A stretch of 64,000 nt of DNA from a phage. Below the pieces are notes generated by a model. It had not been told where the DNA came from. It did not search any database and saw only the letters and a program-made list of their open reading frames with translations. A program made the translations under genes and the position numbers. Position 1 is the first letter of the stretch. Every line of letters begins with the position of its first letter. Shown here in pieces: positions 44,237 to 50,345 of the stretch. Where the stretch lies: sequence record PZ154895.1. One strand, 5' to 3'.

Positions 44237-44244
44237 TATAAATA
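44237..44244 (+). promoter_or_regulatory. late promoter TATAAATA for the CTS gene at 44285
   Basis: exact motif about 40 nt upstream of the ATG. Confidence 0.55.
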
Positions 44245-44284: not shown

Positions 44285-44758
44285 ATGAAATCATATGCTC
44301 AATTTTTAAATGAAGCGGTGTTAAATGAAGCATCTAGCACCGAAATTCAAGCTGTCGCAAAAGCAGCCATTGCAGCGGGTAAATATTCCTATAAAGATGC
44401 TTCTGACGAATCACGATTCCAATTTGCTCGCGACATGAAAGCAGAAGGATTTACGGGAAATGCGGTTAGTATGGCCTGGAAAAGTTTAGTTGCTACTGGT
44501 GCTGCTTTTGCAAAGGCTTCGGGTAAACCTGCTCCTAAAGCAGATCCTAAAGCTACACAAGAAAAAAATATTGTTAAAGGAATTATCGCTAAGTATGAAG
44601 CTATCCTTAAAGAGCTTTTAGTAATCAAAACCGAAGGCCAAAAGTTAGCCCGTGCCTATAGTTTCAAAGATAATCCACATGTTCACTCTCTTGAGTATGT
44701 TGAAGACATCCAAAAAATTATTAAAGACCGCATTTGGTCTGCTAAACAAATCAAATAA
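44285..44758 (+). CDS. internal-protein-like CTS-bearing protein
   Basis: 157 aa; N-terminus MKSYAQFLNE|AVLNE|A with two L-x-E protease-type sites; own late promoter and terminator. Confidence 0.55.
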   Translation: MKSYAQFLNEAVLNEASSTEIQAVAKAAIAAGKYSYKDASDESRFQFARDMKAEGFTGNAVSMAWKSLVATGAAFAKASGKPAPKADPKATQEKNIVKGIIAKYEAILKELLVIKTEGQKLARAYSFKDNPHVHSLEYVEDIQKIIKDRIWSAKQIK

Positions 44759-45320: not shown

Positions 45321-45656
45321 ATGAAACGTAACTTTAGTAAAGCTTTTTGTAATCGAAATTATTATCCCGAAGAGCTTTTTGAATCTAAGGAATTTAAAGA
45401 GTTTAACGAACGTTCTCAAAACATGCCTGTGCAGTGGGTATTGGATTATGCCAATCGTATCTTTGAAGGCGTGCGGGATATTTGTCCTGATGATGAAGCT
45501 CCTTATTTTAAAAAGGCTTGGGAACTTGCTAACCAAGCATATATCAATGCTTTAGAATTTTCTAAAGGCACTGACGATGATTTTACTTTATTGGCTATCA
45601 ATGATGCCGTTATCGAAGCCATTGACATCTTTATCGATGAGCTAGACGAAGAATAA
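45321..45656 (+). CDS. hypothetical protein (e.7 position)
   Basis: 111-aa ORF with GAGGAG SD after an early promoter. Confidence 0.5.
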   Translation: MKRNFSKAFCNRNYYPEELFESKEFKEFNERSQNMPVQWVLDYANRIFEGVRDICPDDEAPYFKKAWELANQAYINALEFSKGTDDDFTLLAINDAVIEAIDIFIDELDEE

Positions 45657-45690
45657 GTTTACAATCTATTAGAAACGTGATATTATCTAA
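45650..45690 (+). promoter_or_regulatory. T4-type early promoter
   Basis: -35 GTTTAC 45657-45662, -10 GATATTAT. Confidence 0.6.
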
Positions 45691-45713
45691 TTATATCAAC
45701 CTAAGGAAATACT

Positions 45714-46307
45714 ATGAACACACTGAAGAAAATTGTTGAGTTTATTCGCACTAAACTTGGTTCTGCTATGGCTAAAAATTTATCTGTTGAAGAACAGTAT
45801 ACTGCTGCAGCAGCAAAACTACTTGATAAAATTAAAGACCTAAAAACTGCTTCTGTTAAATCTATTAATGAAGAAAAACGTATTCGTGAACTTGTTGTTG
45901 AAAAGAATCGACAGGCCGAATCAAAAGAGCGTGAAATTCGTAAACTTCTTTCCGAAGGTCAAGATGTAACAATGCATGCTAAACTTGGTTTACTATATCG
46001 TCGAACAGCTGAGCAGTTGACTACTAAAGCTGACGGTTATGCTGAAATGCGAATTGAAATCGCCAAGAAAGTAGTTGAGTTAGATGATGCTCGCCAAGAA
46101 CTTGCAGTTAAATTGGAATATATCCGTGAAACTCGTGCAGCAAATGCCCTTGGAATTAGTACTGCCGATGATGTAGTTGAAATCGCAGCGCTGACTAAGG
46201 TTGATATTGAAGATACCCTTGCTCGAGTTGAAACCTTTAACGGTAATATTTCCGGGGTTGAAACTACCTCTGCCGATGTCCAGGAATATATTAATTCTCT
46301 GAAATAA
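45714..46307 (+). CDS. coiled-coil protein (e.6 position)
   Basis: 197 aa, almost entirely heptad-like charged helix; followed by a terminator hairpin. Confidence 0.55.
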
Positions 46308-46312
46308 TGATA

Positions 46313-46328
46313 AGGGGCTTCGGCCCCT
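46313..46328 (+). terminator. terminator-like hairpin after the coiled-coil gene
   Basis: hairpin aggggcttcggcccct; downstream T-run weak. Confidence 0.45.
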
Positions 46329-46348
46329 ATTACTTGGAGTAAATAGGA

Positions 46349-46957
46349 ATGAAAATGCAAAGTGATTTCAATTCAATGTTTGAAGAGTTCCAAAGACAGG
46401 TTGATGTTCCAGATCAATTATTAAATGCTCTTAAACGTATGGCAGAAGGACGTAATTACTATTGGGGGTCTTCATATGAAACTGATGAAAGTCTTTCTGG
46501 AAGATTTTCTAGAGGTAAAAAGTCTTTAATACGTCCTGGAATACTTATTAACAGTATTGAATCAATTCATTCATTGACGTGTGATTTTGATGTTGAATTT
46601 ACTGATTTCATTTCTCCTGAATGGACAGTATGTTATTTAAACGACGATTTTGATTATCTCGGTGTTTATAGTTTAAGTGACGCATGGTTTAAACGTAACT
46701 TACAAAAGTCAAATTTATTCTATATTGATACTACAGTAAAATTTCAGGGAAAGAAATATTTCTTTACTCTTATAGTTGATTCTGAAACGAAACATGAAAA
46801 TAAACGTATTCTTAGTAAAAGGAATATCTTGAATATTGTTGATGATCTTTTTGATAAATTCGTGGAAAATCCTAGTTTTGAAAGCGATTTATTACTAGAA
46901 AAATTTGTTAAGGAATGTAGAGAATATGTCAAAGCCATCACTATACCTTCCAAGTAA
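46349..46957 (+). CDS. hypothetical protein, C-terminal FVKECR motif (e.5 position)
   Basis: 202-aa ORF; C-terminus shares a motif with the three downstream membrane proteins. Confidence 0.5.
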   Translation: MKMQSDFNSMFEEFQRQVDVPDQLLNALKRMAEGRNYYWGSSYETDESLSGRFSRGKKSLIRPGILINSIESIHSLTCDFDVEFTDFISPEWTVCYLNDDFDYLGVYSLSDAWFKRNLQKSNLFYIDTTVKFQGKKYFFTLIVDSETKHENKRILSKRNILNIVDDLFDKFVENPSFESDLLLEKFVKECREYVKAITIPSK

Positions 46958-47318
46958 ACCTTTGAAGTATGAATTAAAGCGCCAGCTAATTTCTACTGAT
47001 GTATTAATAGGTCCTGTTATACTCATATCATTTGTAATTCTATTGATTATTGGAGGTGTTTTAGATGTTATGACTGATATTGATTCTGGCGAAATACTTG
47101 TGTTAATGCTAATTCTTCCATTAATAGTTCCACTTTTATTAGTACCTGTAAATTGGATAGGATATTGGTATCAAGGAAGACATTATCGTAAACGTGTACG
47201 TGATTGGAAAGCACAGTGTAAAAAGATTAAAAAGGAACACCAGCTTAAACTTGCTGAGTATGAATTTAATGAAATTATGAAATTTGTTAAGGAATCACGA
47301 TGCAAAAGCCAAAACTAA
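46905..47318 (+). CDS. small membrane protein, paralog family (e.4 position)
   Basis: 137 aa; two hydrophobic helices then basic tail ending FVKESRCK. Confidence 0.5.
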   Translation: MLRNVENMSKPSLYLPSKPLKYELKRQLISTDVLIGPVILISFVILLIIGGVLDVMTDIDSGEILVLMLILPLIVPLLLVPVNWIGYWYQGRHYRKRVRDWKAQCKKIKKEHQLKLAEYEFNEIMKFVKESRCKSQN

Positions 47319-47662
47319 ATAAAGTCAAATATTCGTTCCCCGAGGCACTATTAATTCTTGCTGTGTCAGTATTTGCAGCTCTTGCTGGTAGTCTTATTGG
47401 ATTGTTAATTGACTGTATTATTTTAAACATCGATGGTTCAGCAATTATAACAGAGGTTTGGAGTGAACTTCGTTTTACTATAGCGATTACATTATTTTCA
47501 TTCTTTGGTACCATGCTATATTTTCATTATGATAATTTTAAAATAAATTGGCAAAGAAAAAAGGATTACAAAATACAATTAAAGGAATATAATAACTACA
47601 TGTCTTATATTGAAAAAGAATCAATGGAAGAGTTTGTGAGTGATTGTAGGAAAATTAAATGA
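47300..47662 (+). CDS. small membrane protein, paralog family (e.3 position)
   Basis: 120 aa; two hydrophobic helices; C-terminus FVSDCRKIK. Confidence 0.5.
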   Translation: MQKPKLNKVKYSFPEALLILAVSVFAALAGSLIGLLIDCIILNIDGSAIITEVWSELRFTIAITLFSFFGTMLYFHYDNFKINWQRKKDYKIQLKEYNNYMSYIEKESMEEFVSDCRKIK

Positions 47663-48147
47663 TTTTAAAAACTCGTTGGTATGATTTAGATGATGGGGAC
47701 GATGGCATTTCAGTTGATAGAGTTGACTGGAATGGCTGTTCCGAAGATATGAAAAATTTGCTGATTAGGGAGTTTAGAATGGGATATCAACCAGTTAAGC
47801 CATCTACTGCAACAGATGATAAATTCGTGTGTATTCATAATGGTCGCGCTAAATTAACGAACGCTGATTGGTTCACAGATAAGATTATGATTCTGTGGTA
47901 TATTATTAGTTTTCCTGTGACATCATTTGTATTTTGCTTCTTTGGAGAAAGTCCAGTAGGCAGAACGGGAGATTGGATTCTTTTAATCATACTTGTTAAT
48001 ATTTTTACAGCAGCAGTACTATCAGGAATATGGTGCGTGTTCATTGAAATGCCATGGCGTTTACGTAGGCAGCAAAAGATTTTTGATGAAAAGAAATATA
48101 CTCAAAATTTAAATAATTTTATCACCGAATGCAGGAAATTAAAATGA
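47659..48147 (+). CDS. small membrane protein, paralog family (e.2 position)
   Basis: 162 aa; two hydrophobic helices; C-terminus FITECRKLK. Confidence 0.5.
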   Translation: MILKTRWYDLDDGDDGISVDRVDWNGCSEDMKNLLIREFRMGYQPVKPSTATDDKFVCIHNGRAKLTNADWFTDKIMILWYIISFPVTSFVFCFFGESPVGRTGDWILLIILVNIFTAAVLSGIWCVFIEMPWRLRRQQKIFDEKKYTQNLNNFITECRKLK

Positions 48148-48584
48148 AAACATTATCAGCTGGTATTATCTTTATGACAGAAGATAAAGATTTATTCATG
48201 GGACGGGTTACTGGTTCTCGTAAGCCTGGAATGATGGCACATCGCTGGGATATTCCAAAAGGCCGTGTAGAAAATTCTGATTTGAGCGCACTAGATGCAG
48301 CACGAAGAGAATGCTTAGAAGAGACCGGTTTTAGCAATTATAATCCAGACCTTCTAGAAGACCTAGGTGTATTTAAATATTCTAGTAATAAAGACTTACA
48401 GTTGTTTTATTATACGATTCCAGTAGAGCATGAGATGTTTAGAAATTGCCATTGTGAGTCTTATTTTGAAAATAAAGATGGCGTTATGATTCCAGAAATG
48501 GATGCTTTTGCTCTTATTCCTCGTACTCAGTGGCAATATGTGATGGGTCCTTCACTTTACCGAATAATGAACAGCCTCTTTTAA
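48129..48584 (+). CDS. nudE: Nudix hydrolase NudE (e.1)
   Basis: 151 aa; Nudix box GRVENSDLSALDAARRECLEETGF; immediately upstream of e. Confidence 0.8.
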   Translation: MQEIKMKTLSAGIIFMTEDKDLFMGRVTGSRKPGMMAHRWDIPKGRVENSDLSALDAARRECLEETGFSNYNPDLLEDLGVFKYSSNKDLQLFYYTIPVEHEMFRNCHCESYFENKDGVMIPEMDAFALIPRTQWQYVMGPSLYRIMNSLF

Positions 48585-48587
48585 TTT

Positions 48588-48608
48588 ATAAATACCTTCT
48601 ATAAATAC
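48588..48608 (+). promoter_or_regulatory. tandem late promoters (two TATAAATA copies) for e
   Basis: TATAAATA at 48588-48595 and 48601-48608 upstream of the lysozyme ATG. Confidence 0.65.
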
Positions 48609-48620
48609 TTAGGAGGTATT

Positions 48621-49109
48621 ATGAATATATTTGAAATGTTACGTATAGATGAAGGTCTTAGACTGACTTTATACAAAGACACTGAAGGCTTTTGGACGAT
48701 TGGCATAGGCCATTTAGTAACAAAGAACCCGTCTTTAGCCGTAGCTAAAGCTGAACTTGACAGAATGATCGGACGTAAATGCAACGGTACAATTACCCTT
48801 GATGAGGCTGAAAAGCTATTTAATGAAGACGTTGATAAAGCCGTTCGCGGAATCTTGGGTAATGCTAAACTTAAACCGGTATATGATTCTTTAGATGCAG
48901 TTCGTCGATGTGCGTTGGTCAATATGGTCTTCCAAATGGGCGTAGCAGGCGTCGCTGGTTTTACTAATTCTCTTCGTATGCTTCAACAGAAACGTTGGGA
49001 CGAAGCGGCAGTAAATCTAGCCCAATCTAAATGGTATCGTCAGACACCTAATCGCGCGAAACGCGTAATCTCAACATTTAAAACAGGAACTTGGAAAGCG
49101 TATATATGA
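48621..49109 (+). CDS. e: endolysin (T4-type lysozyme)
   Basis: 162 aa; [15 protein letters not shown]...[13 protein letters not shown] recognised as T4 lysozyme family, roughly 80 percent identical to T4 E as recalled. Confidence 0.95.
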
Positions 49110-49871: not shown

Positions 49872-50345
49872 ATGAAAACATATCAAGAATTTATCACTGA
49901 AGCAGCTATTAATTCTCAAATTATTGCTGAATCTTTTACTGATCTTTTGAAATTTAAAAAAGGACAGAAAATTACTGCTGTATTAGATGATGGTACAGAA
50001 GTTGAGATGGATGTACAAGGATATAATTATGCAGTAGATGGAAAACTGTATAATAAATCTCATGCTAAATTTGATTCATTTGACGACTTTGTTAATACAG
50101 TTGAAGATGAAAAAACTCGTAGATCCATTGCAACTGGCGATGCTAAGGTTCTTATGGCACACGGTCATGAACGTATTCGCGCTAAACAGAATAAAATGGG
50201 CGAAGATAATTTCGCATTAGTTGGTTATCAATCTGGTAAGCAAACTTATGGCTATCAGCGTACTGCTACCATGTATAATAAAAATGGTAAAATCGCTTTC
50301 GTGAATAGCAAAGGCTCTATTCAGTACGTCAAATCATTCAAATAA
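49872..50345 (+). CDS. internal-protein-like CTS-bearing protein
   Basis: 157 aa; N-terminus MKTYQEFITE|AAINSQIIAE|S closely matches the canonical T4 IP leader MKTYQEFIAE. Confidence 0.55.
   Translation: MKTYQEFITEAAINSQIIAESFTDLLKFKKGQKITAVLDDGTEVEMDVQGYNYAVDGKLYNKSHAKFDSFDDFVNTVEDEKTRRSIATGDAKVLMAHGHERIRAKQNKMGEDNFALVGYQSGKQTYGYQRTATMYNKNGKIAFVNSKGSIQYVKSFK

Follow-up and report, generated by a model that had tools for sequence, protein, structure and literature searches.

A conserved C-terminal tag on the T4-type proteins e.5, e.4, e.3 and e.2 and on other small proteins of the e.6-to-e region

Why do four consecutive open reading frames of a T4-type phage end in nearly the same few amino acids? 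The question is raised by sequence PZ154895.1, a 64-kb stretch of DNA (hereafter the window) that is a segment of a Tequatrovirus genome; its positions 45600–48700 are 94–96% identical to vB_EcoM-UFV13, G8 and similar phages. Comparison with the T4 record identifies the four open reading frames (ORFs) as e.5, e.4, e.3 and e.2 (NP_049741–NP_049738). The gene order is that of T4, with e.6 upstream and nudE, the lysozyme gene e, an internal-protein gene and denV downstream, and the window e.5, e.4 and e.3 share length, gene order and 78–97% amino acid (aa) identity with their T4 orthologues. The common ending is Φ-x-x-F-[VI]-x-x-[CS]-R; e.5 terminates in ...FVKECREYVKAITIPSK, e.4 in ...FVKESRCKSQN, e.3 in ...FVSDCRKIK and e.2 in ...FITECRKLK. 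An earlier note on this DNA, made from the letters alone, took the four for a diversifying paralog family of small inner-membrane proteins with possible roles in superinfection exclusion, holin modulation or anti-defence. The ending, here termed the tag, is a real and previously undescribed feature of annotated but uncharacterised genes.

The strict pattern F[IV]xxC[RK] has three matches in six frames of the window, all in e.5, e.3 and e.2, and three in 123 kb of T4, likewise in e.5, e.3 and e.2. A hidden Markov model (HMM) of the tail was built solely from C-termini of phages of other genera and applied to 532 six-frame window ORFs. It ranks e.2, e.5 and e.3 first to third (E 4e-4 to 2.5e-3). 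The e.4 copy, FVKESR, is degenerate (rank 8 of 532, E 4.9). With this caveat the earlier observation of a tandem array with a common C-terminal motif is confirmed, and the motif proves significant in three of the four members. A chance resemblance of four short C-termini could be argued from the shortness of the motif and from plain pairwise alignment, where e.4–e.3 (z 4.6) and e.3–e.2 (z 4.4) stand out and e.5 against the others is not significant (z 0.1–0.8). This explanation is refuted, and its probability is negligible: the independent HMM places three of four tails on top, the strict pattern is found nowhere else in the window or in the 123 kb of T4, and the motif is kept in orthologues from more than ten genera.

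The e.5 family displays this conservation most clearly. With e.6 as an anchor, the downstream genes were read in another 15 genomes, which represent about a dozen genera; the sample was selected by the presence of e.6 and is hence uninformative on e.6 dependence. Nearly all of these genomes encode a soluble, e.5-like protein with F-[VI]-x-x-C-R at its end. The tails include FIAECRE in Gaprivervirus and Dhakavirus, FVDQCR in Kanagawavirus, FIKYCRE in Jiaodavirus, FINLCR in Moonvirus, FIKHCRE in Marfavirus, FVDYCRR in Aeromonas phage 44RR, FIKKCR and FVRKCR in Aeromonas phage ZPAH1, and FIHSCKK in Pseudotevenvirus. The exception is Morganella phage vB_Mm5, where a strict motif match is absent and partial variants (FVRDCF, FVISCY) are present. 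An alignment of e.5 from seven genera (17–46% identity) has the invariant columns M1, P63, N98, F186, C190 and R191. In a 42-sequence alignment N98, C190 and R191 are invariant and F186 is conserved in at least 90%. When 1.84 billion representative proteins were searched exhaustively with HMMER, just 25 e.5 relatives were found, and F-[VI]-x-x-C-R is present in 19 of the 19 distant representatives that reach the C-terminus. Homologues of e.5 bear PF26876 in the precomputed annotation of the protein database; window e.5 was without a match to the local Pfam copy.

The nucleotide (nt) sequence behind the e.5 motif is far from constant. Its codons vary synonymously (TGT/TGC for Cys; AGA/AGG/CGT/CGC/CGG/CGA for Arg; TTT/TTC for Phe), the F codon lies 22–106 nt before the next start, and several genera have a separate Shine-Dalgarno sequence after the motif. 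In 44RR, PG7, Kosakonia 305 and SP18 the motif is outside any ribosome-binding site (RBS). Because codons change synonymously and the distance to the next start varies, selection in e.5 acts on the peptide. The e.5 motif is thus an old feature, selected as protein, and, from the alignments, the best-conserved element of the family throughout the Straboviridae. In Enterobacter phage PG7 (L010 4656–5320) the e.5 homologue is split over three frame segments (0, 2, 0) and is annotated as two short ORFs; its tail FINYCRGQ is unannotated, and the locus is a pseudogene or reflects assembly errors.

A structural model of e.5 was obtained with AlphaFold. The mean predicted local distance difference test (pLDDT) was 59.9 with a shallow alignment; addition of distant relatives gave a pLDDT of 86.2 and a predicted template modelling score of 0.81. 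The model displays an α/β core (pLDDT 86–97) followed by two C-terminal helices, the last of which (aa 177–198) carries the motif and has a pLDDT of 66–70. The least firmly placed part of the model, the motif helix, thus bears the best-conserved residues of the family, which would fit an intermolecular role. Sequence searches of the PDB with e.5 found nothing.

The tag is not limited to the four window genes. A strict-pattern scan over all fetched loci (148,000 six-frame residues) gave 50 matches, and for about 45 of these a coding-strand ORF of the e.6-to-e region ends within 25 residues of the match. Tagged proteins include ORF133 of RB69 (101 aa, two transmembrane (TM) helices, FIKECRGK), three consecutive 2-TM proteins of PG7, a soluble protein family of ~92–95 aa in three genera (R3_1, CF1, Kosakonia 305), a 102-aa protein between nudE and e in Klebsiella phage pKp20, a 117-aa PG7 protein and an 80-aa protein of Aeromonas phage ZPAH1. 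Across tagged proteins the motif lies 0–25 residues from the C-terminus. Among homologues of e.3 (n = 37) the F, D, C, R and K of the motif are invariant; a word-indexed homologue search with e.3 gave close relatives only (≥65% identity). The tag thus appears on at least eight otherwise unrelated small proteins of the T4-like hyperplastic e.6-to-e region. Tagged 2-TM proteins are always accompanied by e.5 in the sampled genomes, whereas 44RR and EBPL have e.5 and no tagged 2-TM proteins. The tagged genes of RB69 are non-contiguous, with ~3.5 kb of other genes between e.3 and ORF133/e.2, and thus the four-in-a-row layout of the window is taken as a T4-type compaction. An exact IMG/VR scan with FIKECRK codons gave 13 loci, four of them T4-like e.2 or e.3 and the rest out-of-frame noise, and is uninformative on distribution beyond T4-like phages.

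A second tandem family is found directly 3′ of e.3 in many genera. It consists of two to five acidic soluble proteins (65–105 aa) with G-x-W-[VIL]-S-S-S-x-x-C at the extreme C-terminus, and is absent from the window and from T4. Its loci are L003 3231–4025, L004 3984–5252, L007 5522–6103, L008 5710–6545, L010 5302–5828, L012 6066–6604, L016 5567–6371 and L023 (RB69 ORF136–139).

Do the four window proteins descend from one ancestor? Each belongs to its own PHROG with a full-length match: e.5 to phrog_2607 (E 7.5e-109, residues 1–202), e.4 to phrog_2604 (E 1.2e-70), e.3 to phrog_2330 (E 1.9e-57) and e.2 to phrog_2203 (E 1.1e-79). Cross-hits between these PHROGs were not found. For e.4, e.3 and e.2 the profile match goes together with T4 synteny between e.6 and nudE. 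Five of the pairs among e.5, e.4, e.3 and e.2 were compared by hhalign of family alignments, and all five align C-terminal columns alone. The probabilities are 96% for e.4–e.3 (E 4.4e-9, 34 columns, i.e. the cytoplasmic tail), 84% for e.2–e.3 (E 7.9e-6, 19 columns), 14% for e.2–e.4 (E 2e-3, 16 columns), 31% for e.5–e.3 (E ~5e-4, 17 columns) and 32% for e.5–e.2 (E ~5e-4, 16 columns). Similarity thus spans 16–34 C-terminal columns, and homology over the protein bodies, which a single four-ORF family would display, was not found. e.4 and e.3 additionally share an N-terminal M-x-K-P-x-L and a D-rich end of the first helix (TM1). By these comparisons e.4 and e.3 are paralogs at least in their tails, and e.2 and e.5 share the tag only.

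The arrangement of the locus is as follows.

45714–46307, + strand: e.6, coiled-coil-like conserved protein at the upstream edge of the array (T4 annotation)
46313–46328, + strand: G+C-rich hairpin GGGGCTTCGGCCCC between e.6 and e.5, a terminator in the annotation of phage Lutter
46349–46957, + strand: e.5, 202 aa, soluble, α/β core; C-terminal helix aa 177–198 at nt 46877–46942
46904–46921, + strand: e.5 motif FVKECR (F186, C190, R191)
46901–46943, + strand: junction repeat copy 1 (end of e.5 and start of e.4), AAATTTGTTAAGGAAT...ATG.CAAAGCCA
46926–47318, + strand: e.4, 130 aa; TM1 at nt 47016–47072, TM2 at nt 47094–47150; basic cytoplasmic tail (predicted)
47283–47300, + strand: e.4 motif FVKESR (weak copy); its K-E codons, AAGGAA, form the Shine-Dalgarno sequence of e.3
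47280–47317, + strand: junction repeat copy 2 (end of e.4 and start of e.3)
47300–47662, + strand: e.3, 120 aa; TM1 at nt 47351–47422, TM2 (weaker) at nt 47474–47527; cytoplasmic tail (predicted)
47633–47650, + strand: e.3 motif FVSDCR
47659–48147, + strand: e.2, 162 aa; cytoplasmic N-domain aa 1–75 (predicted); TM1 at nt 47884–47943, TM2 at nt 47974–48042; tail
48118–48135, + strand: e.2 motif FITECR; AGGAAA after the motif is the Shine-Dalgarno sequence of nudE (ATG at 48144)
48144–48584, + strand: nudE (Nudix hydrolase), downstream end of the block; ATGA overlap with e.2, translationally coupled

TM helices were taken from Kyte-Doolittle hydropathy and orientation from the charge distribution (positive-inside rule). 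Hydrophobic helices are found at aa 31–49 and 57–75 of e.4, aa 18–41 and 59–76 of e.3 (the latter is the weakest) and aa 76–95 and 106–128 of e.2. There is none in e.5 (Kyte-Doolittle maximum 0.87). In e.4, e.3 and e.2 the loops between the helices are acidic with 0–1 K/R, and the N- and C-terminal segments are K/R-rich; the tails should thus be cytoplasmic, and the predicted topology is N-in, C-in. The N-domain of e.2 is conserved in an alignment with JS98, fDHCT2 and KLB31.

The tail itself has amphipathic character. Over the motif segment the hydrophobic moment is 0.52–0.69, and it peaks at LLEKFVKECREYVK. A C-terminal degron, recognised for instance by FtsH, ClpXP or Lon and curtailing the lifetime of these early proteins, or an amphipathic helix that takes e.5 directly to the membrane, is a plausible explanation of the tag, if a somewhat doubtful one. 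The C-terminal place, the basic ends (CRKIK, CRKLK, VRRK), the high hydrophobic moment and the predicted cytoplasmic location of the tail all suit it. C-terminal degrons, however, are usually found at the very terminus, whereas the motif may be as many as 25 residues away from it. Membrane-targeting helices keep amphipathicity rather than particular residues, and here Cys and Arg are nearly invariant; in addition the segment has a negative mean hydrophobicity.

In the membrane proteins the tag has a second property at the nucleotide level. The genes from e.5 to nudE overlap by 32 nt (e.5/e.4), 19 nt (e.4/e.3), 4 nt (e.3/e.2) and 4 nt (e.2/nudE), and are thus translationally coupled. Translation of e.4 most likely begins with the ATG at 46926 rather than with the TTG at 46905, because this ATG is the start in the T4 annotation and the N-terminus MSKPSLYLPSKP is kept in RB69/JK45, SP18 and a Klebsiella phage. 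The motif takes a relaxed form, [FW]-[IVL]-x-x-[CVMSI]-[RK], in e.4, e.3 and e.2 and in homologous proteins. The F codon of the 2-TM proteins is always 17–26 nt upstream of the next ATG, and the Shine-Dalgarno sequence of the downstream gene is formed by the K-E codons (AAGGAA/AAGGAG) or the R-K codons (AGGAAA).

As an RBS control, 70 tightly coupled junctions with a Shine-Dalgarno sequence were collected from the window and 100 kb of T4. KE and RK dipeptides occur in seven each, and the motif solely in the tails of e.4, e.3 and e.2. These data bear on the proposal that the motif is a by-product of nucleotide constraints on the initiation region of the next gene, i.e. a U-rich leader, an AAGGAA/AGGAAA Shine-Dalgarno sequence and a spacer in the last codons of the coupled gene, and has no protein function. 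The fixed position of the F codon in all 2-TM members, the Shine-Dalgarno role of the K-E or R-K codons and the occurrence of KE or RK in ~10% of coupled-junction C-termini are what it would predict. The motif is found, however, in 0 of the 67 other coupled junctions. In the e.5 family of several genera 32–106 nt separate it from the next start, a separate Shine-Dalgarno sequence comes after it, and its codons vary synonymously. Replacements (F/W, I/V/L, R/K, and Arg codons of both families) suit the peptide rather than the RNA, and those of F/W and of the R codons AGA/CGT cost two nucleotide changes. What follows a tagged protein is an unrelated gene or an intergenic gap. The by-product explanation is very unlikely; an origin from the RBS as sole cause is rejected by the e.5 codon and distance data and by the 70-junction control. 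It is concluded that in the membrane proteins peptide and RNA constraints both act on the same bases. The overlap of motif and RBS and the wide spread of the tag are two points that go beyond the earlier note.

With respect to expression, σ70-like promoters are found upstream of e.7 and of e.6, and the late-promoter box TATAAATA was not found on the + strand between 44.3 and 48.58 kb; two are located directly before e. From these promoter types the e.5–e.2 block is most likely pre-replicative. A late box TATAAATA is also present at 44237, where it precedes a 157-aa ORF (44285–44758, + strand) that starts MKSYAQFLNEAVLNEA and resembles the capsid-targeting sequence of internal head proteins. 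This ORF is upstream of e.8 and has no counterpart gene at that place in T4; N-termini akin to its own are found at 49106 and at 49872 (MKTYQEFITEA).

Several observations concern the genes adjoining the array. The nudE start is ambiguous (48129 or 48144 in the window). In T4 the annotated start is the upstream ATG (MQEIKMKTL...); the one at 48144 is preceded by a good Shine-Dalgarno sequence, AGGAAA, 7 nt upstream, forms ATGA over the e.2 stop, and agrees with the Lutter start and with the JS98 and pKp20 N-termini. In the T4 reference (NC_000866, 67491–67960) e.2 is annotated with 102 aa. The sequence there displays two frameshifts, out and back within ~35 codons, and TM2 and the FITECRKLK tail can be read in frame past the break. 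An intact 162-aa e.2 with both TM helices and the tag is present in the window and in most relatives of the tblastn sample; e.2 of the T4 reference may be a pseudogene, or else the old sequence contains errors. The C-terminus of e.7 (45321–45656), ...IDIFIDELDEE, is F-I-x-E-like and has no Cys-Arg such as the tag has; its score with the tail HMM is poor, and it is probably unrelated to the tag.

e.6 gave tblastn matches in 1107 phage records and is far better conserved than its neighbours, i.e. 99% within Tequatrovirus and 24–58% in Aeromonas and Morganella phages. The protein is predicted to be largely helical or coiled-coil. Many records name it a ‘host specificity protein’ without visible basis, and no Pfam match (E ≤ 1) or PDB sequence match was found. 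A PspA-like nature of e.6 was considered and dropped, as Pfam support is absent at E ≤ 1.

How have these genes evolved? Ratios of nonsynonymous to synonymous substitution (dN/dS) were calculated by the Nei-Gojobori method against T4, Lutter and JK45. They are 0.03–0.07 for e.6, 0.05–0.13 for nudE and 0.10–0.12 for e; the values for the tagged genes are 0.10–0.37 (e.5), 0.18–0.36 (e.4), 0.34–0.50 (e.3) and 0.29 (e.2). JK45, a Tequatrovirus, has RB69-type alleles of e.5, e.4 and e.3 that have just 46, 54 and 38% identity with the window genes, and its e.6 is 88% identical. By these ratios the e.5–e.2 genes are fast-evolving, yet purifying selection prevails overall.

The gene junctions consist of short direct repeats, which run from the tail of one gene into the opening codons of the following one. 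Window repeats 46901–46943 and 47280–47317 both contain AAATTTGTTAAGGAAT and ATG.AAAAGCCA, and an identical core of 16 nt is common to the e.5/e.4 and e.4/e.3 junctions. In Dhakavirus dhabil, which is without e.4, the e.5/e.3 junction is an exact chimera of Gaprivervirus SP18 junctions; its left half is that of SP18 e.5/e.4 and its right half that of SP18 e.4/e.3. Thus the gain and loss of units by recombination in the ~20–40-nt junction repeats can be seen directly in this chimera.

The repeats suggest a further explanation, namely that the motif marks a cassette boundary or a scar of recombination and that the peptide hitch-hikes on repeated DNA of the hyperplastic region. The position of the repeats over gene tail and next start, the 16 identical nt, the dhabil chimera and the lack, in T4-type genomes, of the ~3.5 kb that part e.3 from e.2 in RB69 would all accord with a scar. 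Nevertheless, the motif DNA has diverged across genera while the amino acids are kept, and F, C and R are the best-conserved e.5 residues over 17–46% identity. An 18-nt stretch with degenerate codons is a poor substrate for recombination between genera. It is more probable that recombination makes use of the repeats than that it gives rise to the conservation, and a scar is a less likely explanation, of low probability.

The paralog proposal of the earlier note can now be weighed. It holds that the four are diversifying inner-membrane paralogs, each possibly with its own target in exclusion, holin control or anti-defence; on this view the common tail would be an inherited remnant. The 2-TM topology, early expression, raised dN/dS, divergent alleles and variable copy number agree with it, and the genes are non-essential in laboratory hosts, as conditional accessory genes would be. 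However, the tagged proteins include soluble, unrelated ones, namely e.5 and several others, so that the tail is not simply inherited within one paralog family; moreover it is the best-conserved part and no decaying remnant. Similarity to Imm, Sp or holin/antiholin proteins was not detected at E ≤ 1 in Pfam, PHROGs and NCBIfam, PADLOC models of defence and counter-defence gave no match at E ≤ 1, and the NCBIfam scan returned nothing meaningful. The proposal as a whole is rather unlikely. Parts of it stand. Three of the four ORFs are small inner-membrane proteins by prediction, and the two TM helices with a basic cytoplasmic tail are borne out by hydropathy and charge in e.4, e.3 and e.2. Copy number does differ between genomes (T4-type versus RB69, dhabil versus SP18 arrangements). 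Paralogy holds for the e.4 and e.3 tails (96%, E 4e-9) and fails for the four together, as e.5 is a soluble α/β protein that shares the terminal helix only. ‘Diversifying’ is apt as regards fast evolution and divergent alleles; positive selection is not established, since gene-wide dN/dS is below 1.

What might the tag do? The reading favoured here, and held tentatively, is that the tag helix is a portable cytoplasmic docking or association tag that ties e.5 and the 2-TM anchors together or to a common partner. A short amphipathic helix exposed in the cytoplasm would serve as the docking element. It may join soluble e.5 and the variable 2-TM anchors (N-in, C-in) into a hetero-oligomeric inner-membrane complex; alternatively it may bind e.5 and the anchors to one common phage or host partner. 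The module would be accessory and dispensable in laboratory hosts. The divergent bodies, i.e. the TM hairpins, the e.2 N-domain and the e.5 core, would probably have host-specific functions, with the tag as their common address. Tag codons in the membrane proteins would double as the RBS of the next gene, and module membership may change through recombination in the tag-coding repeats. The tag peptide takes, for example, the form ESDLLLEKFVKECREYVKA.

Several points weigh against a docking role. Docking is deduced indirectly and the binding partner is putative; the low pLDDT of the terminal helix is an indirect pointer to exposure. The e.4 copy (FVKESR, HMM rank 8) is degenerate, and the Cys of 2-TM homologues is often V, M, I or S, so that the job of the tag may differ among proteins. 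Nucleotide-level selection contributes to the motif in the 2-TM proteins. The occurrence of e.5 without tagged membrane partners in some phages indicates that a mutual complex is not obligatory. Finally, the knock-down and insertion screens are without a phenotype for these genes in laboratory conditions. Supplementary files 8 and 15 of the T4 genome-wide knock-down list e.2–e.6 with no assigned function and no fitness effect (PMC11879866), and supplementary file 7 of the T4 insertion screen lists them as non-essential, with function unassigned (bioRxiv 10.1101/2025.11.20.689424). Literature searches by gene names and motif strings found no functional study; the genes are mentioned only in screen tables. 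Database labels are hypothetical or predicted membrane protein, with scattered spurious names, e.g. ‘sulfurtransferase’ and ‘host specificity protein’.

A wider form of the docking idea, possible but doubtful, is that the tag is an address that plugs a guild of at least eight otherwise unrelated early protein families, among them soluble e.5, several 2-TM families and small soluble proteins, into one hub. The hub may be e.6 or a host inner-membrane machine; e.6 in this role is speculative. If the hub exists, it would represent an unrecognised modular effector-docking system at the membrane of the infected cell, with cassettes exchanged via tag-coding repeats.

The e–tRNA region of T4-like phages is a classic hyperplastic block of small early genes, none with an assigned function, and the tag gives it a first concrete experimental handle. 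With 6–10 residues the tag is mutable, is usable as bait and defines proteins that belong together. Should it prove to be a docking signal, a phage membrane complex or hub would come to light, and the joint travel and diversification of the genes would be explained. The locus is also a clear example of dual coding, with peptide motif and RBS on the same bases, and shows coding repeats driving gene gain and loss.

Among known systems, the capsid-targeting sequence of T4 internal proteins, MKTYQEF[IL]xE|A, is likewise a short amphipathic common address on unrelated phage proteins; the gp21 protease cuts after [LI]-x-E. The likeness F-[IL]-x-E-[small] extends to NFITEC of e.2 and EFITEA of window ipII. 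The capsid-targeting sequence, however, is N-terminal and is found on late or structural proteins, whereas the e-tag is found at the C-terminus of early proteins, of which three are embedded in the membrane. Position 4 of the tag varies (E, D, Q, N, Y, M, F, H, L, S, K; e.g. FVKMCR, FVKYCR, FIKHCR, FVDQCR). A capsid-targeting or gp21 cleavage site is ruled out by the wrong terminus and by the lack of conservation of the required Glu, and the analogy is one of principle.

Imm and Sp (superinfection exclusion), and rI, rIII and T (lysis inhibition), are small early membrane or membrane-associated proteins of T4, and Imm has two TM helices. The Pfam, PHROG and NCBIfam scans gave no similarity to any of them. 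Like the tagged membrane proteins they are small, early, (inner-)membrane proteins that are non-essential in the laboratory. Unlike these they do not carry the tag, which the whole-T4 scan found in e.5, e.3 and e.2 only.

The modular shuffling of T4-type hyperplastic regions, in which gene-sized units between short repeats are gained and lost, is described by a published cassette model. The same process is seen in dhabil versus SP18 and in T4 versus RB69. The loci differ from the cassette model in that no intergenic promoter or stem-loop forms the repeat; here it is inside the coding sequence and encodes a conserved peptide.

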